From: an uncultured Erysipelotrichaceae bacterium
GTDB taxonomy: Bacteria; Bacillota_I; Bacilli_A; Erysipelotrichales; Erysipelotrichaceae
Direction: 5' to 3'
Length of the DNA stretch: 32,000 nucleotides
Assembly (NCBI GenBank): GCA_964401865.1
Contig: CAYNZZ010000009.1
Coordinates: 26,357-58,356 of the forward strand
In this document: positions 4,969-17,679 of the stretch, in pieces
Layout of the letters: each line of letters begins with the position of its first letter
Numbering within the stretch: the first letter of the stretch is position 1
The notes under the pieces: model-generated
The model's database searches: none
The model's input: the letters and a program-made list of their open reading frames with translations, nothing else
Told to the model about the DNA's origin: nothing
Made by a program: the position numbers and the translations under genes

Positions 4969-6075
4969 TTATTTGATGGTGTAGTTCGTAAAATCATCAG
5001 TCATATAGACATTTAATCCGTTGATATTTTGAGTTTTGATATCTTCCGGATTATTTTCGCTCAATACCCAAAGAACTTCGATTTCAACATCATAATAATC
5101 TTCGACTCTTTGAATAAACTTCATTCCTTCTTCGATATTCATATTGAAAAGCGAAGTGCTTAAAGCATCCGCTAAACCGCTATTACTCACAATAACGCTT
5201 ACTGATTCATATAAATCTGAAGGATATAGTGTATCGGGATTGATGATATGGTGCATTTTTTTATTGCCCTCAGCAATGTAATAATTGAAGTAATTTCCTG
5301 ATGTGACAACCGATGCACTATTTCTAGTGAAAACATTGATAATACCATCATATGAATATTCTTGACTGCTTCTTGGATCTTGAATAGCTACGCCCCATGG
5401 TGTGCCGTCTGCTTTGTCATTTATTGTTCTGACATTGCCACCACCGACAATGCTGGCGTGTTTGATGCCGTTTTCTTCGAGCATTAAAGCTATCTTTTCG
5501 ACGGTATATCCTTTAGCAATACCACCGACATCAAGCGAAATATCTGGATCATCAATATAGACGGTACTATTTTCTTCATCAATTATGATATGTTCAAAAC
5601 CATGGTGTTTGCTGGCCTCGATTAAGTCATTTTCATCAGGAAGAATACCATAAACACCCGATTCATTCAGTGTTTTACCATCTTCTCTAACCTTATGCCA
5701 AACTTTTAATAAAGCACCCTGAGTAATATCAAATTTACCATTTGAGAGTTCATACATCTCTTTTGAAATCTTCAACATTTCAATGATTTCCTCATCAACT
5801 TCAATCGGTTTGATGCCGGCGTTATCATTAATGGTTTTGATATTATTGATATTTTCATAGTTATTATATATATCAAATAATTTATTATATCTTATGACTG
5901 ATTCTTTAATCATCTCTTCGTACTGGTTATTCTTATTTTCATTTTCAGTATAGATTATCCAGTTCCATACAGTGTTGAATCCGCAGTCATAACATATGTC
6001 GCTATACCTATTTAATGGTTTACATCCCGACAATAAAAAAGTAATTGTTATTAGTGATAAGATGATTTTTTTCAT
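4969..6075 (-). CDS. apbE: FAD:protein FMN transferase (ApbE family) lipoprotein
   Basis: Signal peptide with lipobox LLSGC. ApbE motifs DITQGALLKV, DVGGIAKGY and SVVTSGNY. ATG 6075 is preceded by AGGGAG; the track start at 6078 is an adjacent TTG. The gene is divergent from rnfC. Confidence 0.9.
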   Translation of the reverse strand: MKKIILSLITITFLLSGCKPLNRYSDICYDCGFNTVWNWIIYTENENKNNQYEEMIKESVIRYNKLFDIYNNYENINNIKTINDNAGIKPIEVDEEIIEMLKISKEMYELSNGKFDITQGALLKVWHKVREDGKTLNESGVYGILPDENDLIEASKHHGFEHIIIDEENSTVYIDDPDISLDVGGIAKGYTVEKIALMLEENGIKHASIVGGGNVRTINDKADGTPWGVAIQDPRSSQEYSYDGIINVFTRNSASVVTSGNYFNYYIAEGNKKMHHIINPDTLYPSDLYESVSVIVSNSGLADALSTSLFNMNIEEGMKFIQRVEDYYDVEIEVLWVLSENNPEDIKTQNINGLNVYMTDDFTNYTIK

Positions 6076-6104
6076 CAAAAGCTCCCTTGTAATTTAATGG
6101 AGTT

Positions 6105-6153: not shown

Positions 6154-7437
6154 ATGGCGTTCTTGATAGGACCAATGCAGAAGCATTTAGATGGTCATAA
6201 AGAACTAACCGCTCATAATGAAATAATTGATTTAACAGCCGGTGATAAAGTTTATATTCCATTAATGCATGGTGGTGCAGTGATAAAATGCCTTGTTAAT
6301 GTCGGAGACGAAGTTAAAATCGGTGATCGTATTGCGGTTAGAGACGATCATTTCTATGTGCCTTTTTTTGCGTCGGTATCAGGCAAAGTGATAGGTATCG
6401 AAAAGCGCATGTCTTCTAGTTTAAGACCGGTTGATCATGTGGTTATTGAAAACGATCATCTCGATACAAAAGCTGAACTTCCTACTCTAGGAAAAGATGC
6501 TTCAAGAGAAGAAATCATTGATTTTATGAAAGATAAGGGACTTGTAGGTTGTGGTGGTGCTGGTTTTCCTTCATACATCAAGTATCAGACTGACAAGTGT
6601 GAAACATTAATCATCAATGCAGTAGAATGTGAACCTTATATTACTGCTGATGCCAGAATGGTAGAAGATAATAAGGAAGACTTTAAATTAGGCGTTCTTT
6701 CGATGCTTAAAGCTTCTAATGCTAAGGTGTGCTACATTGGTATTAAAGAGAGTAAAAAAGAATTAATACCTCAACTTCAAGAATTATTTAAAAATGACGA
6801 TAATGTTGAGGTAAAAGCAGTAAAAGATGTTTATCCAATGGGTTGGGAAAGAACCTTGGTTTTCTCGATTTTAGGCAAGCGATATGAAAAACTTCCTATT
6901 GAAGTAGGAGCCATTGTTTCTAATGCTACGACAGCTATTATGTTGGCGAGGGCAATGAATACCGGCTTACCAATTTATGAAAAGTTAATTACTGTTTCTG
7001 GTGATGGTATTAAAGAACCACACAATGTTTTGTGCCGTGTAGGTACAAGTTTTAAAGATTTAATTAATGCTTGTGGTGGATTAAAAGATGATGCTGATAA
7101 GTTTGCGCTTATCGCTGGAGGGCCAATGATGGGGACTTCGGTTATCAAAGACGAAGTGTGTATTGGTGCTGCCAGTAATGCAGTTACGGTCTTAAAGTAT
7201 GTTGAAGTAAAAAGTATTGCTTGTTTAAGGTGTGGCCAATGTGTTGATCATTGTCCAAGTGGTCTAGAACCGGTCAATATCAACAAGGCATTAAAGGCTA
7301 AAGATCTTGATATGGTAAAGAAACTTCATCCAATGGATTGTATTGAATGTGGTATGTGTACATATGTTTGTCCTTCGAATATCGAAGTGACTGAAGGTGT
7401 ACGCCGTGCTAAGAAAGCTATGGCTTTAAATAGATAA
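6154..7437 (+). CDS. rnfC: Rnf electron transport complex subunit C (NADH/FMN-binding, 2x[4Fe-4S])
   Basis: 427 aa. Contains GCGGAGFPSYIKY (51K-type NADH/FMN site) and two ferredoxin motifs, CLRCGQCVDHCP and CIECGMCTYVCP. RBS AAGGAGG. Confidence 0.92.
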   Translation: MAFLIGPMQKHLDGHKELTAHNEIIDLTAGDKVYIPLMHGGAVIKCLVNVGDEVKIGDRIAVRDDHFYVPFFASVSGKVIGIEKRMSSSLRPVDHVVIENDHLDTKAELPTLGKDASREEIIDFMKDKGLVGCGGAGFPSYIKYQTDKCETLIINAVECEPYITADARMVEDNKEDFKLGVLSMLKASNAKVCYIGIKESKKELIPQLQELFKNDDNVEVKAVKDVYPMGWERTLVFSILGKRYEKLPIEVGAIVSNATTAIMLARAMNTGLPIYEKLITVSGDGIKEPHNVLCRVGTSFKDLINACGGLKDDADKFALIAGGPMMGTSVIKDEVCIGAASNAVTVLKYVEVKSIACLRCGQCVDHCPSGLEPVNINKALKAKDLDMVKKLHPMDCIECGMCTYVCPSNIEVTEGVRRAKKAMALNR

Positions 7438-7449
7438 GGTGGTGTAAGA

Positions 7450-9330
7450 ATGGAATTAAAATATAAAGCAGCGCCTCATGTTAGGCATAATTATTCAACT
7501 GCTAAGATAATGATGCATCTTACTATTGCTTTACTTATCGTTTATGCTTTTGCACTATATCGCAGTTTCACTTTAGGGCAGGCGTATTTAATTAGAGCTA
7601 TCGTACTGATGCTTACTTCTGTTGTAGTAGCGTGTTTGACCGAAACTATTTGGGCACTTTGCACACACAAAAATGTCATTGATTATTTAAAATCATCATT
7701 TCCTTGGGTTACAGCTATTATTTTAACCTTAATGGTTCCTGTTAATACTGAACCATATGCCTTAGGTGTTTCAACTTTCATCGCTATCTTCTTTGGCAAG
7801 TTGGTATTTGGCGGTTTTGGTCAAAATATTTTCAATCCGGCTGCTGTTGGTAGAGCGATTATTTTTTCGAGTTTTGCAGGCAGTATCTCAGCCGATCTAA
7901 TCACTAGCGCCACACCTGCCACTACTCTTGCGAGTGTTGGACAAATTGCTTCATCTGGTGATTTTTCGGTTTTCTTAAATGATTTTGGTGGGTTATTTAA
8001 TTTAGGCCTTGGTATGTATCAGGGGGCAATGGGTGAAACATGTTCAATTTTGATCATTGTTCTTGGCATTTATTTAACTATTGTAAATGTTATTGATTGG
8101 CGTATCCCGGTTACATACTTAGGTGTAATGTTCTTCGGTTCATTATTTGTCGGTATGGGGCATGGTCTTGGCTTTGATTATGCGCTATATTCAATTTTAA
8201 CTGGTGGTGCAATGTTCGGTGCTGTATTTATGCTTACTGATCCGGTCACTAATCCAACTACTAGAGCCGGTAAGATTGTTTTTGCAAGTATTGCCGCTGT
8301 CATTACAATCGTTATCAGATATTATGCTAATCTTCCAGAAGGCGTATTATTCTCTATTCTATTCGCAAATATGCTTACGCCAATTATTGATAAGTTTTTT
8401 GCGGGTAAACAAGTTGCCCGTATCAATAAAAACATCATCAGCACATTCGGAATGGTAATTTTATCCGTTGTCCTGATAGTTGTTATGGGGTTGGGTTTAG
8501 AATCCAAGACATATACGAGTATCTTGGTTCCTGAGTTTAACAGAGGAGCCAGTGTATCATTAAGTGATGATTATAGTATCTATAAACCAAAATTAATATC
8601 TCAAGATGGCGACACATATCAAGTGAGTGCCTTAGGCTATGGTTTATTAGGAACGCAATACGGTGGAGCAGGTGGTGAAAGTCACACAGGCGATACTTAT
8701 AAGAGAAATGAAATGACTATTGTGATTGATTCAAGTACCAATACAGTTGTATCGGTTGAGATTACTTCATTTGGCGATACGACTGGCATAGGTGATAAGG
8801 TAGATGACAAAGGATTCTATTATCAATTTATTGGTGCTGATCTTGATAGCGATGTCGATGTTGTGAGTGGCGCTACATATACATCTAAGTCAGTTAATGC
8901 AGCGGTTAATTTTGTGTTAAACGGCTGTCCTGAACCGGCAAAGATAAATGATGATTACAGTGCTTACAGCGCCACAATTACCGATGCCACGGTTAACGAC
9001 AATGGTGATGGAACTTATCATGTATCAGTAAGAGGCTATGGCTTGCTCGATGTTCAAAGCGGCGGTGCTGGTGGCGTGAGCCACACGGGCGATACTTATA
9101 CGAGAAATGAATTTGATATTACGGTGAAAGACGGCAAGATTGATTCTATCGTATTAACACATTTCGGCGATACAACAGGTATTGGCGATAAAGTTGATGA
9201 TGCATATTTAGAGAGTTTTAATGGAAAGGGTATAGATGATAGTGTTGATTTGATGAGCGGCGCTACCTATACTTCTGTGTCTGCCATAGCTGCTGCGCAA
9301 GCGGTCTTGAGCACAATCATAATTGACTAG
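7450..9330 (+). CDS. rnfD: Rnf subunit D fused to an extra TM helix and two tandem FMN-binding domains
   Basis: Residues 1-~325 are canonical RnfD/NqrB (GQNIFNPAAVGRA, native flavinylation-type site DLITSATP, MLTDPVT, ANMLTPIIDK). Residues 329-350 form an additional hydrophobic helix (IISTFGMVILSVVLIVVMGLGL). Residues ~372-490 and ~500-620 are two homologous FMN_bind-like domains, each ending in D(V/L)xSGATYTS. Confidence 0.9.
   Translation: MELKYKAAPHVRHNYSTAKIMMHLTIALLIVYAFALYRSFTLGQAYLIRAIVLMLTSVVVACLTETIWALCTHKNVIDYLKSSFPWVTAIILTLMVPVNTEPYALGVSTFIAIFFGKLVFGGFGQNIFNPAAVGRAIIFSSFAGSISADLITSATPATTLASVGQIASSGDFSVFLNDFGGLFNLGLGMYQGAMGETCSILIIVLGIYLTIVNVIDWRIPVTYLGVMFFGSLFVGMGHGLGFDYALYSILTGGAMFGAVFMLTDPVTNPTTRAGKIVFASIAAVITIVIRYYANLPEGVLFSILFANMLTPIIDKFFAGKQVARINKNIISTFGMVILSVVLIVVMGLGLESKTYTSILVPEFNRGASVSLSDDYSIYKPKLISQDGDTYQVSALGYGLLGTQYGGAGGESHTGDTYKRNEMTIVIDSSTNTVVSVEITSFGDTTGIGDKVDDKGFYYQFIGADLDSDVDVVSGATYTSKSVNAAVNFVLNGCPEPAKINDDYSAYSATITDATVNDNGDGTYHVSVRGYGLLDVQSGGAGGVSHTGDTYTRNEFDITVKDGKIDSIVLTHFGDTTGIGDKVDDAYLESFNGKGIDDSVDLMSGATYTSVSAIAAAQAVLSTIIID
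8563..9309 (+). repeat. tandem duplicated coding module (two FMN-binding domain copies) inside rnfD
   Basis: Copy 1 is about 8563..8919 and copy 2 about 8947..9309. Aligned strings include GYGLLGTQYGGAGGESHTGDTYKRNE / GYGLLDVQSGGAGGVSHTGDTYTRNE, FGDTTGIGDKVDD in both, and VSGATYTS / MSGATYTS. Similarity is also visible at the nucleotide level (ggcgatacttataagagaaatga vs ggcgatacttatacgagaaatga). Confidence 0.85.
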
Positions 9331-9339
9331 GAGGCATAT

Positions 9340-9840
9340 ATGAAAAAAACAATTACATTAGTATTATTCTTAGGAATTGTGGCCGCTGTTTCAGGTTTAT
9401 GTATCAGTTTGGTAAATGATGTCACTAGTCCGATAATTGCTGAAAATGATATCGCTTCTGAAAAGGCAAATTTAGAATTGATGTTTCCTAATGCTGAATT
9501 TACAGTTATCGATTACTCGGGTGACGATGATGCGGTACTGGGCATCTATGAAGTTAAAGATATTGGCTATGTAGTAAAGGTTGAGGGATATGGATATTCG
9601 TCGACACCAATTGTTGCCTTGATAGGCATGGATAAAGATCTTACCGTTCTTGATGTAATTATCTTATCTAATCAAGAAACAAATGGTTTCGGTAGTCGTT
9701 GCTTTGAAAGAGACTTTGTGGAAAAAGCCTACATTGGCAAGAAAAAAGATGAAGAAGTAGATATGCTTTCAGGTGCAACTTTAACATCGACAGCCATGAA
9801 GAAAATGATCAACTCTGCGCGTATGGCGCTAGGTGATTAG
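9340..9840 (+). CDS. rnfG: Rnf subunit G (membrane-anchored FMN-binding subunit)
   Basis: 166 aa. N-terminal TM anchor, an FMN_bind domain and the flavinylation motif DMLSGATLTS. RBS GGAGG. Confidence 0.9.
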   Translation: MKKTITLVLFLGIVAAVSGLCISLVNDVTSPIIAENDIASEKANLELMFPNAEFTVIDYSGDDDAVLGIYEVKDIGYVVKVEGYGYSSTPIVALIGMDKDLTVLDVIILSNQETNGFGSRCFERDFVEKAYIGKKKDEEVDMLSGATLTSTAMKKMINSARMALGD

Positions 9841-9848
9841 GAGGACTT

Positions 9849-10490
9849 ATGTGGAAAAATTTTAAAAATGGTTTCATTTTAGAAAATCCAGTATTCGGTC
9901 TTTATTTAGGTATGTGTAGTGCGTTAGCTATTTCTACAACATTAAATAATGCAATCGGTATGGGTATGTGTGTTACATTGGTATTGATTTGTTCAAATAT
10001 CATCGTATCAATCATTCGCAAAGTTACACCGGATGAAATTCGTATTCCGGTATATATTGTTGTAATAGCATCTTTAGTTACAATTGTAGAAATGTTAGTA
10101 CATGCGTTTATGCCTGAATTATATAAATCGCTTGGTGTATTCTTATCATTGATTGTAGTAAACTGTATTATTCTTGGACGTGCCGAAGCATTTGCGTCTA
10201 AAAATGGTGTGGTAGCAAGTGCCATTGATGGCTTAGGCATGGGTTTAGGATATACTTTCGCTTTATTGTTAATATCGGTTGTAAGAGAATTTTTAGCGAC
10301 GATGGCAATTACATTTGTAAATCCATTCAATGCCGAACAAGTTTTATTCTCGTTTAGTATTGAAGCTTTGGAACCATTCAAGATTTCTTTATTCTCTTCA
10401 TCTGTTGGTGCATTCTTTACATTTGCGTGCTTTGCGGCATTATTCTCGGTTATTCGTAAGAATATGAAAAAGAAAGAGGAGGCTAAATAA
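9849..10490 (+). CDS. rnfE: Rnf subunit E
   Basis: 213-aa polytopic protein of the RnfA/E-NqrD/E family: NPVFGLYLGMCSALA and LSLIVVNCIILGRAEAFA. Its position after rnfG is as in rnfCDGEAB operons. Confidence 0.9.
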   Translation: MWKNFKNGFILENPVFGLYLGMCSALAISTTLNNAIGMGMCVTLVLICSNIIVSIIRKVTPDEIRIPVYIVVIASLVTIVEMLVHAFMPELYKSLGVFLSLIVVNCIILGRAEAFASKNGVVASAIDGLGMGLGYTFALLLISVVREFLATMAITFVNPFNAEQVLFSFSIEALEPFKISLFSSSVGAFFTFACFAALFSVIRKNMKKKEEAK

Positions 10491-10492
10491 TT

Positions 10493-11068
10493 ATGGGTGA
10501 AATTTTAACTATGGCTTTGGCCGCTATACTTATCAATAATGTTGTGCTATCTAAATTCTTGGGTGTTTGTCCGTTCTTAGGTGTATCTAAAAATTCTAAG
10601 AATGCGATTGGCATGGGTCTTGCGGTAACATTTGTTATTCTGGGTGCTTCACTAATTACATATTTCTTGTATTATGGTGTTTTAGTAAAATTTGAGATTG
10701 AATATATGCAACTTATTACTTTCATTTTGGTAATCGCTGCTTTTGTTCAATTTGTTGAAATGTTTATTAAGAAATATAGTGCGCCATTATATAAGAGTTT
10801 AGGTATCTATTTACCACTTATCACTACTAACTGTGTCGTATTATTCGTGGCAAAAGACAATATTGCACAAGGCTATAATTTAGTTGAAACAATCGTTAAT
10901 TCAATTTCTGTACCTTTAGGTTTCATGCTAGTGCTATATTTATTCTCTAGCATTCGTGAAAGACTTGATAGTTCTGATGTTCCCGAGGCATTTAAAGGCA
11001 ATCCGGTTGCACTAGTTGTTGCAGGTCTTATGGCTTTAGCCTTTAGCGGTTTAGCTGGTATTGTTTAA
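10493..11068 (+). CDS. rnfA: Rnf subunit A
   Basis: 191 aa: NNVVLSKFLGVCPFLGVS and LGIYLPLITTNCVVL, of the RnfA/NqrE type. RBS GAGGAGG. Confidence 0.9.
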   Translation: MGEILTMALAAILINNVVLSKFLGVCPFLGVSKNSKNAIGMGLAVTFVILGASLITYFLYYGVLVKFEIEYMQLITFILVIAAFVQFVEMFIKKYSAPLYKSLGIYLPLITTNCVVLFVAKDNIAQGYNLVETIVNSISVPLGFMLVLYLFSSIRERLDSSDVPEAFKGNPVALVVAGLMALAFSGLAGIV

Positions 11069-11256
11069 TGTCGGCAATTATCTATTTTATTGTTTTGGCA
11101 GCTTTGTATGGAGTATTCTATTATTTTAATCATAAGACTCCAAAACCTGAAGGTTGCGAAAATTTAAAATCTAACTGTGATGGATGTAAGATAACTTCTT
11201 GTATGTCGCATCCTATTCACGATGAAGCTTATAAGGGAGGAAACAAAGATGATTAA
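11068..11256 (+). CDS. small Cys-rich single-pass membrane protein (resembles FeoB-associated Cys-rich membrane peptides)
   Basis: 62 aa. N-terminal TM helix (SAIIYFIVLAALYGVFYYF), then the motif CENLKSNCDGCKITSC (C-x6-C-x2-C-x4-C). Its ATG overlaps the rnfA stop (TAATG) and its 3' end overlaps the rnfB start by 8 nt. That coupling on both sides argues for a real gene. Confidence 0.6.
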   Translation: MSAIIYFIVLAALYGVFYYFNHKTPKPEGCENLKSNCDGCKITSCMSHPIHDEAYKGGNKDD

Positions 11257-11557
11257 TGCTATATTAGTAATGTTGGTTGTTGGTATGGTTTTGGGATTAT
11301 TATTGTCGCTTGCTTCAAAACTGTTCTATGTCGAGATAGATGAAAGACAAGAAAAAGTTACGTCTATGCTTCCAGGGTTCAACTGTGGAAGTTGTGGACA
11401 TCCTGGCTGTAGTGGATTGGCGAGTGCGTTAATAGAAAAAAGTACTGACACAGTGAATTGTAGGCCATGTAAGCCTGAACAAAGGCAAGCTATTGTTGAT
11501 TATCTCAATAGTACGCCAGGTCCAGATGGCGAAGTATTAAAAGTAAAATCAATATAA
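11249..11557 (+). CDS. rnfB: minimal Rnf subunit B: membrane anchor plus N-terminal Fe-S module only, no ferredoxin-type domains
   Basis: 102 aa from ATG 11249; GGGAGG at 11235..11240 gives an 8-nt spacing. TM helix MINAILVMLVVGMVLGLLLSLA, then LPGFNCGSCGHPGCSGLASAL...NCRPC, the RnfB N-terminal C-x2-C-x4-C-x17-C pattern. The ORF stops before any CxxCxxCxxxCP domain. The track start at 11222 has no SD. Confidence 0.8.
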   Translation: MINAILVMLVVGMVLGLLLSLASKLFYVEIDERQEKVTSMLPGFNCGSCGHPGCSGLASALIEKSTDTVNCRPCKPEQRQAIVDYLNSTPGPDGEVLKVKSI

Positions 11558-11561
11558 TAAA

Positions 11562-11589
11562 TAACGGTATCATAGCTATGATACCGTTA
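11562..11589. repeat. perfect 28-nt palindrome between rnfB and mrp
   Basis: TAACGGTATCATAG|CTATGATACCGTTA. No U-tract follows. TATAAT at 11593..11598 comes directly after it, followed by the AAGGAGG of mrp. Confidence 0.7.
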
Positions 11590-11615
11590 CGTTATAATGC
11601 AAAAGGAGGAATAAA

Positions 11616-12437
11616 ATGAGCGAAAATTGTAATCACGATTGCAGTAATTGTAATGAAAATTGTAATTCAAGACAAATCGAACCAAAAGTACCACTAGAAG
11701 ATACTAAAATAAATAAGATTGTTGGTGTTTTAAGTGGAAAAGGCGGCGTCGGCAAATCGATGGTGTCTTCGCTTTTAGCAGTAGAATTAGCTAAAAAGGG
11801 ATATAAGGTTGGTATCATGGACGCTGATATCACAGGTCCAAGTATTCCGAAGATGTTCGATATGCATGAACCTGCATATGGTGATGAAAAAGGTGTTTTC
11901 CCTAATTTGAGTAATAAATACGGTATTAAAATATTATCTATCAATATGATGCTAGAAAGCGAAGATACACCGGTGTTGTGGCGTGGTCCTATCATTGGCG
12001 GAATGGTTACTCAATTCTATACTGAAGCGCATTGGGGTGAATTAGATTATTTAGTAATTGATATGCCACCAGGAACCAGTGATGTTGCATTATCTGTTTT
12101 ACAAGAAATTCCAGTAGACGGTCTGGTAATGGTATCCAACCCATCTAAATTGGTGTCAATGATTGTTTCTAAGGCTATTGTTATGGCACAAAAAACTGAT
12201 ACTAAGATGATTGGCTTAGTTGAAAATATGGCATATGTAAAATGTCCGGATTGCGGAAAGATCATTAAGATTCATGGTGATAACGATACTAAAAACATTT
12301 GTCAAAAATATAATTTGGATGTTTTGGCTAGTTTGCCATTAGATACCGAGTTAGCTAATTTATCTGATGAAGGTAAAATTGAAGATTATAGTAGCAATTA
12401 TATTGATGAATTGGTTGCTTCTGTTATTACATTTTAA
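11616..12437 (+). CDS. mrp: Mrp/NBP35/ApbC-family ATP-binding Fe-S cluster carrier
   Basis: 273 aa. Deviant Walker A GKGGVGKS, the DMPPGTSD motif, a C-terminal CPDCG pair and an N-terminal Cys-rich tail CNHDCSNCNENC. RBS AAGGAGG. Confidence 0.9.
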   Translation: MSENCNHDCSNCNENCNSRQIEPKVPLEDTKINKIVGVLSGKGGVGKSMVSSLLAVELAKKGYKVGIMDADITGPSIPKMFDMHEPAYGDEKGVFPNLSNKYGIKILSINMMLESEDTPVLWRGPIIGGMVTQFYTEAHWGELDYLVIDMPPGTSDVALSVLQEIPVDGLVMVSNPSKLVSMIVSKAIVMAQKTDTKMIGLVENMAYVKCPDCGKIIKIHGDNDTKNICQKYNLDVLASLPLDTELANLSDEGKIEDYSSNYIDELVASVITF

Positions 12438-17136: not shown

Positions 17137-17679
17137 ATGAAAGATTTAAAAGGCACAAAAACCGAAAAGAACTTAATGGAGGCATTTGCTGGCGAATCAC
17201 AGGCACGCAATAAATATACATTCTATGCTTCTAAAGCTAAAAAAGAAGGATATGAACAAATTTCTGCTATTTTTACAGAAACTGCTGGAAATGAAAAGGA
17301 ACATGCTGAATTATGGTTCAAGTATCTTCATGGCGGTGCAGTTCCTACAACAGTAGAAAACTTAGCAGATGCAGCTAATGGCGAAAACTATGAATGGACT
17401 GATATGTATGCACGTATGGCTAAAGAAGCTAGAGAAGAAGGTTTTGAAGAAATAGCAACTACTATGGAAGGTGTTGGCGCTATTGAAAAAACACACGAAG
17501 AACGCTACAAGAAGTTATTGGCAAATATTGAAAATGGCGTAGTATTTGATCGTCCTGAAGAAGTTGAGTGGGTATGCCGTAATTGTGGTCACATCCATAA
17601 AGGCGTTTCAGCTCCAGAAGTATGCCCTGTATGTAACCATGCAAGATCATATTTCATGCTTAGAGAAGAAAACTATTAA
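17137..17679 (+). CDS. rbr: rubrerythrin
   Basis: 180 aa. Ferritin-like di-iron domain ([29 protein letters not shown]) plus a C-terminal rubredoxin-like CRNCGH...CPVCNH. Confidence 0.93.

Follow-up and report, generated by a model that had tools for sequence, protein, structure and literature searches.

An RnfB reduced to a membrane helix and a single FdI module, of the type known from Thermotoga maritima, at the end of an Erysipelotrichaceae rnf operon

The window, which is the whole stretch of 32,000 nucleotides analysed here from an uncultured Erysipelotrichaceae bacterium, contained a complete rnfCDGEA(x)B operon on its + strand. The first gene, rnfC (6154..7437, +), encoded an NADH/FMN module with two [4Fe-4S] clusters (TIGR01945, 361 bits, above cutoff; two CxxCxxCxxxC motifs). 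It was followed by rnfD (7450..9330, +), composed of an RnfD core (PF03116, residues 6-321), an extra transmembrane (TM) helix and two FMN_bind repeats (PF04205, matched twice), and by rnfG (9340..9840, +), for which Pfam, NCBIfam and a motif scan indicated an FMN_bind domain with the flavinylation motif SGATLTS. Genes rnfE (9849..10490, +; PF02508; TIGR01948, 219.6 bits, above cutoff) and rnfA (10493..11068, +; PF02508; TIGR01943, 238 bits, above cutoff) came next, then a micro-ORF (11068..11256, +) and, as last gene of the operon, a short rnfB referred to here as mini-rnfB (11249..11557 including the stop, +). Divergently from rnfC lay the apbE flavin transferase gene (4969..6078, -; PF02424, 224 bits), whose position was kept in most related loci.

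Gene mini-rnfB consisted of 102 intact codons preceded by a ribosome-binding site and terminated by TAA at 11555-11557. The sequence GGGAGG (11235-11240) was found 8 nt 5' of ATG 11249. Another ATG, located in frame upstream at 11222, would yield 111 aa; the start at 11249 gives 102 aa, which is the length typical of nearly all mini-RnfB homologues. The product displayed an N-terminal transmembrane anchor helix at residues 2-25 (11252..11323, +; helix in the AF2 model, aligned with TM1 of RnfB chains from 7zc6, 9eri and 8ahx) and a PF04060 [4Fe-4S] module at residues 41-73 (11369..11467, +), with ligands C46, C49, C54 and C71 assigned from Pfam and Cys conservation. The latter formed the pattern C46-x2-C49-x4-C54-x16-C71 within FNCGSCGHPGCSG...NC. 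The protein ended with the conserved tail STPGPDGEVLKVKSI (residues 88-102; 11510..11554, +), delimited by alignment, pN/pS and the AF2 model.

An earlier note, made from the letters of the window, had already described this product as a 102-aa RnfB with an anchor helix, an RnfB-type Fe-S module and a short tail. The ORF, Pfam and the RnfB models all agreed with that description, and the motifs it quoted (FNCGSCGHPGCSG...NCRPC) as well as the tail were found as given. The comparison with family models that it had proposed returned PF04060 ('FeS', 'Putative Fe-S cluster') as sole Pfam match, scoring 42.4 bits over residues 41-73 (cutoff 23), and no Fer4-type family in the Pfam scan. Best NCBIfam matches were RnfB/RsxB models, aligned over model positions 1 to ~70-90 only and scoring below cutoff (TIGR01944, 57.4 bits against 68.7).

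The statement that no ferredoxin-type cluster is encoded within or after mini-rnfB was likewise borne out. A regex scan for CxxCxxCxxxC found none in mini-RnfB or downstream of it, and among the ORFs of the window only RnfC carried the motif. The distance from the mini-rnfB stop (11557) to the mrp start (11616) was 58 nt and was filled by a hairpin (11561..11590), leaving no space for a degraded ferredoxin domain 3' of the gene. This hairpin, detected by folding and noticed earlier as a palindrome, displayed a perfect 13-bp stem (-18 kcal/mol, z = -5.0) and was unique in the window. There was no U-tract on the + strand, and a T-rich run followed it on the - strand; terminator, RNA stabiliser and operator are candidate roles. 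Gene mrp/apbC (11616-12437, +; PF10609, 285 bits) encoded an Fe-S cluster carrier ATPase with a Cys-rich N-terminal stretch (CNHDCSNCNENC). Its location directly 3' of rnfB was particular to the window and was encountered in none of 80 related loci.

Relatives of the operon were gathered by scanning one genome per GTDB species, which led to 587 confirmed stretches, of which the best 80 loci were analysed. These belonged to Erysipelotrichaceae, Izemoplasmatales, 'Tenericutes', Ca. Bathyoplasma and unclassified Bacilli; Erysipelotrichaceae were represented by Faecalicoccus, Faecalitalea, Anaerorhabdus, Holdemania, Merdibacter, Solobacterium, Bulleidia, Stecheria and [Eubacterium] hominis. The order rnfC-D-G-E-A-(micro-ORF)-B was kept across these 80 best loci of 587. 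The survey of RnfB lengths suggested in the earlier note gave a uniform result, the short form being present in all 80 species-level loci (best 80 of 587): the rnfB frame ended ~88-107 residues from the conserved start and contained zero CxxCxxCxxxC motifs in every one of them. A search of 5.8 billion proteins retrieved 34 homologues at 47-100% identity, all of 101-107 aa and all with PF04060 only, and relatives with as little as ~42% identity shared the short length. When 1.84 billion cluster representatives were searched exhaustively with an HMM, the top matches included dozens of separate clusters (50% identity) with lengths of 85-120 aa, which indicates that short RnfBs form a large family. 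One short RnfB from the representative search originated from a 'Clostridia bacterium' MAG. Literature searches yielded no description of an RnfB from Erysipelotrichaceae, nor of a truncated RnfB in the lineage.

The conserved positions extended over the whole protein. In an alignment of 16 divergent homologues, C46, C49, C54 and C71 were invariant while C74 was not, and Y85, G91, P92 and G94 of the tail region were invariant as well. Compared with six relatives, synonymous sites of mini-rnfB were saturated (pS 0.5-1.0) and pN amounted to 0.15-0.42 across helix, cluster domain and tail; for codons 76-102, pN was 0.17-0.29 against a pS of 0.5-1.0. Purifying selection has thus maintained mini-RnfB across the Erysipelotrichaceae and adjoining lineages of Bacilli.

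These data bear on the possibility that mini-rnfB derives from a full-length rnfB by recent truncation, as a pseudogene or through an assembly error. The sole point in favour of such an origin is that the protein is short and scores under the cutoffs of full-length RnfB models. Its length was however shared by 34 out of 34 homologues and by 80 out of 80 loci (best 80 of 587), purifying selection reached its final codons and no coding space was available 3' of the gene. When all frames of the 80 loci were inspected, remnants of Fer4 domains were absent beyond RnfC and three unrelated ORFs. Neither a full-length RnfB in a close relative nor a frameshift, the two observations that the earlier note had named as speaking against its reading, was found. 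Length conservation (34 proteins, 80 loci) and pN/pS together rule out a pseudogene or frameshift, and a recent truncation or assembly error deserves practically no credence.

The missing clusters were not encoded next door either. The earlier note had raised the possibility of a separate ferredoxin-domain protein acting as substitute; a scan for CxxCxxCxxxCP in ORFs of at least 35 aa, covering the window and ±7 kb in 84 loci, detected no conserved ferredoxin gene near the operon. Only RnfC and three unrelated ORFs (two in locus L075 and one in L082) displayed the motif in these 84 loci. A 'split RnfB' encoded by neighbouring genes is thus excluded within 7 kb.

A few proteins displayed other module arrangements. 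P0037 (182 aa) and P0069 (231 aa) were RnfB-like and combined a TM helix with two tandem PF04060 modules, without ferredoxin-type motif, and P0046 contained two PF04060 modules plus a polyferredoxin. The FdI module was evidently duplicated in some lineages.

Canonical RnfB/RsxB proteins were represented by the solved chains of C. tetanomorphum (7zc6_B), A. woodii (9eri_B) and A. vinelandii (8ahx_B). A 2025 review divides RnfB into three parts, namely a TM helix, a small [4Fe-4S] domain on a flexible tether and a ferredoxin-accepting C-terminal domain with two to seven clusters. The N-terminal ~85 residues of the three chains, comprising TM1 and FdI/B8, were homologous to mini-RnfB, whose gene also occupied the same operon position. 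A profile of the mini-RnfB family matched their N-termini with E-values of 1e-13 to 1e-16, over TM1 and the cluster module and with identical Cys spacing. Mini-RnfB thus displayed the TM anchor, the FdI/B8 module and the rnfA, C, D, E and G neighbours expected of a canonical RnfB/RsxB. In contrast, the C-terminal domain with its two to seven further [4Fe-4S] clusters was wholly missing, as were the minimum of two CxxCxxCxxxCP clusters by which this domain is recognised. Canonical RnfB attaches to RnfC through this domain, which is considered to receive electrons from ferredoxin. Mini-RnfB is accordingly a membrane helix carrying one small flexibly tethered [4Fe-4S] domain, and no other cofactor binder.

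The closest described counterpart was RnfB from T. maritima, for which Kuhns et al. 2020 (PMC7414866) noted a mass of only 10.56 kDa and a single predicted 4Fe-4S centre, and raised the question of whether clostridial ferredoxin could still serve as donor. The purified T. maritima Rnf complex accepts clostridial ferredoxin, acts as Fd_red:NAD+ oxidoreductase and transports Na+ (PMC7414866); Kuhns et al. cautioned that the single cluster of its RnfB 'remains to be established' (PMC7414866). Vitt et al. 2022 described the same protein as an FdI domain only (PMC9588780). The earlier note had stated that at least two clusters follow the Fe-S module in characterised RnfB proteins, and this is contradicted by the T. 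maritima protein, which has one predicted cluster in an active complex (PMC7414866).

TM0249 of T. maritima (AGL49173.1; P0308) measured 97 aa from its annotated start, against 102 aa for mini-RnfB. Both displayed a TM helix and a single PF04060/FdI domain with identical CxxCxxxxCx16C spacing and without Fer4 motif, and they were 36% identical over residues 1-77 of mini-RnfB. Both were also encoded by the last gene of an rnfCDGEAB operon, directly after rnfA in T. maritima and separated from it by one micro-ORF in the window. Size (~90-105 aa), TM helix, single FdI domain without further cluster motif and terminal location in an otherwise complete rnfCDGEAB operon, which characterise the TM0249 type, were thus all encountered in mini-RnfB. 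TM0249 differed in ending with a plain helix (..KKILEEYKNVSS), without the TPGPDG..KVK tail of mini-RnfB. The operon differed as well, since T. maritima, which belongs to a different phylum from the window organism, had no Cys-rich micro-ORF, no adjacent apbE and an ordinary RnfD (318 aa). Against the mini-RnfB family profile, the TM0249-like sequence scored 64.9 bits and the N-termini of long RnfBs 52-61 bits, with only ~80 alignable residues, and the family's affinity to the former is regarded as no greater than to the latter. Judged from these sequence features, mini-RnfB is a member of an already characterised class, the FdI-only RnfB of T. maritima type, this class being defined by architecture, shared ancestry aside. 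Because TM0249 shares architecture, Cys spacing and operon position, the unusualness of mini-RnfB is much reduced. The FdI-only form is at the same time no Thermotoga oddity, being standard among a large set of Bacilli from gut and sediment (Erysipelotrichaceae, Izemoplasmatales and relatives). Family-model cutoffs built on long RnfBs under-call it in these Bacilli.

The AF2 model of mini-RnfB (pLDDT 87.6) displayed the TM helix at residues 2-25 with pLDDT above 90 and a small three-helix domain surrounding the Cys residues. A tail strand at residues 100-101 was paired with residues 68-69. Best Foldseek matches in the PDB were to the N-terminal [4Fe-4S] domain of the CFeSP large subunit (2ycl, 4djd, 9fzy_F), with rmsd of 1.4-3.5 A over ~50-59 columns and 18-28% identity; E-values were weak, the domain being so small. 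This domain shares PF04060 with mini-RnfB and is likewise a flexibly linked single-cluster electron relay. It differs in being soluble, fused to a TIM-barrel/corrinoid protein, devoid of membrane helix and unrelated to Rnf. The same likeness of RnfB FdI was noted by Vitt et al. 2022 (PMC9588780). No RnfB chain appeared among the Foldseek PDB matches because FdI is unmodelled in deposited Rnf structures (residues 31-95 untraced, PMC9588780).

The tail consensus ..YLNsTPGPDGxxlKVK was found in about half to two-thirds of short RnfBs, that of the window included. It was missing in about a third to half of them, which stopped soon after the last helix. As far as alignments indicate, the TPGPDG..KVK tail is a conserved, lineage-specific feature of 15 residues.

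The micro-ORF at 11068..11256 encoded a 62-aa membrane protein with the pattern C30-x6-C37-x2-C40-x4-C45, and was recognised from the ORF list and from its conservation between rnfA and rnfB. Its start overlapped the rnfA stop (TAATG) and its stop overlapped the rnfB start by 8 nt; since the ORF overlaps both neighbours, translational coupling is suggested. The layout consisted of a TM helix followed by N(H/K)(K/R)TPxPxG-C-x6-C-x2-C-x4-C. A micro-ORF of this type was located between rnfA and rnfB in 77 out of 83 loci, while seven short-RnfB loci had no counterpart and rnfA abutted rnfB in them. N21, P27, C37, C40 and C45 were invariant in the alignment and the remaining Cys was near-invariant. 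In locus L036 from a Bacilli MAG (693-1001), the upstream micro-ORF had kept only three Cys (..DSCQGCYNFEC), which indicates that the first of the four is not universally required. The family comprised 289 homologues, of 53-88 aa among the 120 matches listed, and among these matches almost all named ones were annotated 'hypothetical'.

Affiliation of the micro-protein with known families was tried and rejected: none of 27 micro-proteins scanned matched the NqrM family, and only seven out of 27 matched PF12669 (FeoB-associated Cys-rich membrane protein), all below threshold, no other family showing any resemblance. NqrM (DUF539), an Fe-S maturation factor, is a small membrane protein on which insertion of the [2Fe-2S] cluster into Nqr depends. 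The micro-protein resembles it in being small, single-TM and provided with conserved Cys, and in being encoded in the operon of a homologous pump, the NqrM gene being co-transcribed with the Na+-NQR operon; this likeness is an analogy, without sequence match. By such analogy, a role of the micro-protein in iron delivery or assembly is plausible. The micro-ORF can be put forward as a concrete candidate, either for a factor assembling Rnf or for an additional subunit.

It was also considered whether the micro-protein could be a seventh subunit whose four cytoplasmic Cys bind a metal centre and which, together with mini-RnfB, would replace the ferredoxin domains as a composite input module. The overlap of the micro-ORF with both neighbours, suggestive of translational coupling, its presence in 77 out of 83 loci with short RnfB, the invariance of three of its Cys and near-invariance of the fourth, and the large size of its family, restricted to 53-88 aa among the matches listed, are in line with this idea. 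Seven short-RnfB loci and the active T. maritima operon nevertheless lacked the micro-ORF, which indicates that short RnfB does not require it. Furthermore, Cx6Cx2Cx4C beside the membrane is not a recognised [4Fe-4S] motif, and both the sub-threshold resemblance to PF12669 and the NqrM analogy favour iron delivery or assembly. A composite input module is hence quite improbable.

The rnfD product was extended (residues ~330-626) by an additional TM helix followed by two FMN_bind repeats of ~130 aa each. Each repeat displayed an SGATYTS motif of ApbE type (residues 473-476 and 603-606), and flavinylation motifs of RnfD were located at residues 152 (TSAT, core), 473 and 603. Core site, two repeats and RnfG add up to four predicted extracytosolic covalent FMN sites. 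In related operons, RnfD was enlarged (to 780 aa), RnfG was enlarged (to 440 aa) or neither was, enlargement of one of them being frequent without being universal. Meheust et al. (PMC8238504) proposed that multi-flavinylated RNF clusters serve as outlets towards alternative acceptors outside the cytosol, and the RnfD extension fits such clusters. A link between short RnfB and extra FMN domains was rejected, as many short-RnfB operons contained ordinary RnfD and RnfG; the RnfD extension is independent of RnfB shortening.

The same extension could indicate an outward-facing Rnf, in which electrons from NADH would mainly be delivered through RnfC to flavins outside the cytosol, namely RnfD-FMN, RnfG and the additional pair of FMN_bind repeats, and further to extracellular reductases or acceptors. 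RnfB and RnfAE would then be secondary, and the antenna would have been lost as ferredoxin was no longer the main partner. Such an orientation would agree with the additional TM helix of RnfD and the two FMN_bind repeats, equipped with ApbE motifs, that follow it, with the apbE gene adjoining the operon, with the many related loci displaying an enlarged RnfD or RnfG, with the proposed function of multi-flavinylated RNF clusters (PMC8238504) and with the large arsenals of secreted flavin reductases in Erysipelotrichaceae genomes. Short RnfB was, however, equally present beside ordinary RnfD (~360-400 aa) and RnfG (~170 aa), as in loci L010, L012, L019, L025 (Faecalicoccus) and L076 (Faecalitalea), and T. 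maritima possesses a short RnfB without FMN expansion. RnfA, RnfE and the four RnfB Cys were moreover under purifying selection, an argument for actual use of the B/AE branch. This explanation of the short RnfB is considered unlikely.

Architecture, an intact operon, conservation and selection, and the T. maritima precedent instead suggest that mini-RnfB functions as an RnfB and belongs with the short, FdI-only proteins of which T. maritima RnfB is the known example, a reading that we consider probable. On the basis of published Rnf structures and of the T. maritima enzyme, its single cluster would correspond to RnfB-1/B8, the last RnfB station. Reviews and structures assign this domain the part of a mobile carrier handing electrons to the RnfA/E [2Fe-2S] cluster. 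In A. woodii, the domain (B8) shifts to a position on RnfA/E from which the intramembrane [2Fe-2S] cluster is reduced, and the B8 cysteines are among the cofactor-removal mutations that validated the electron pathway. FdI of mini-RnfB would similarly swing onto the cytoplasmic RnfA/E face to reduce the [2Fe-2S] cluster in the membrane. With the polyferredoxin 'antenna' missing, FdI would itself be the docking site of reduced ferredoxin (or flavodoxin) and be reduced by it directly, as T. maritima enzymology and the structures suggest; by analogy, the soluble low-potential donor would most likely be ferredoxin. Electrons would then travel along the conventional U-shaped path from RnfA/E to RnfG-FMN, the RnfD flavins, RnfC and NAD+, coupled to Na+/H+ export, or follow the reverse route. 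In the AF2 model, the lineage-specific tail appears to fold back on FdI and may shape the donor-docking surface.

Since the Cys-rich micro-ORF and the two extra FMN domains of RnfD differ from T. maritima, electron flow may not be purely from ferredoxin to NAD+. A more speculative proposal, to which we attach limited confidence, is that Erysipelotrichales and relatives possess a remodelled Rnf. The antenna would be replaced by a single-cluster RnfB with a TPGPDG..KVK docking tail and by the unannotated, translationally coupled 4-Cys micro-protein, acting either as seventh subunit or as an Rnf counterpart of NqrM installing the intramembrane [2Fe-2S] cluster; multi-FMN RnfD or RnfG would provide an outlet to extracellular reductases.

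The short RnfB by itself poses no challenge to current understanding, the T. maritima enzyme having already demonstrated that ferredoxin:NAD+ activity can do without a polyferredoxin domain. The main value of the locus lies in the Cys-rich micro-ORF and in a mesophilic minimal Rnf as experimental system, and mesophilic, culturable gut carriers offer a natural minimal system for direct ferredoxin reduction of a mobile FdI/B8. Cultured carriers among the loci were Faecalitalea cylindroides ATCC 27803 (L076), Faecalicoccus pleomorphus DSM 20574 (L025) and Anaerorhabdus furcosa ATCC 25662 (L032). Elsewhere in the window, a rubrerythrin with a rubredoxin-like C-terminal domain was encoded at 17137-17679 (+). 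Together with the remaining content (pgi, alpha-amylase, a two-component system, era and recO), it was consistent with an oxygen-sensitive anaerobe.
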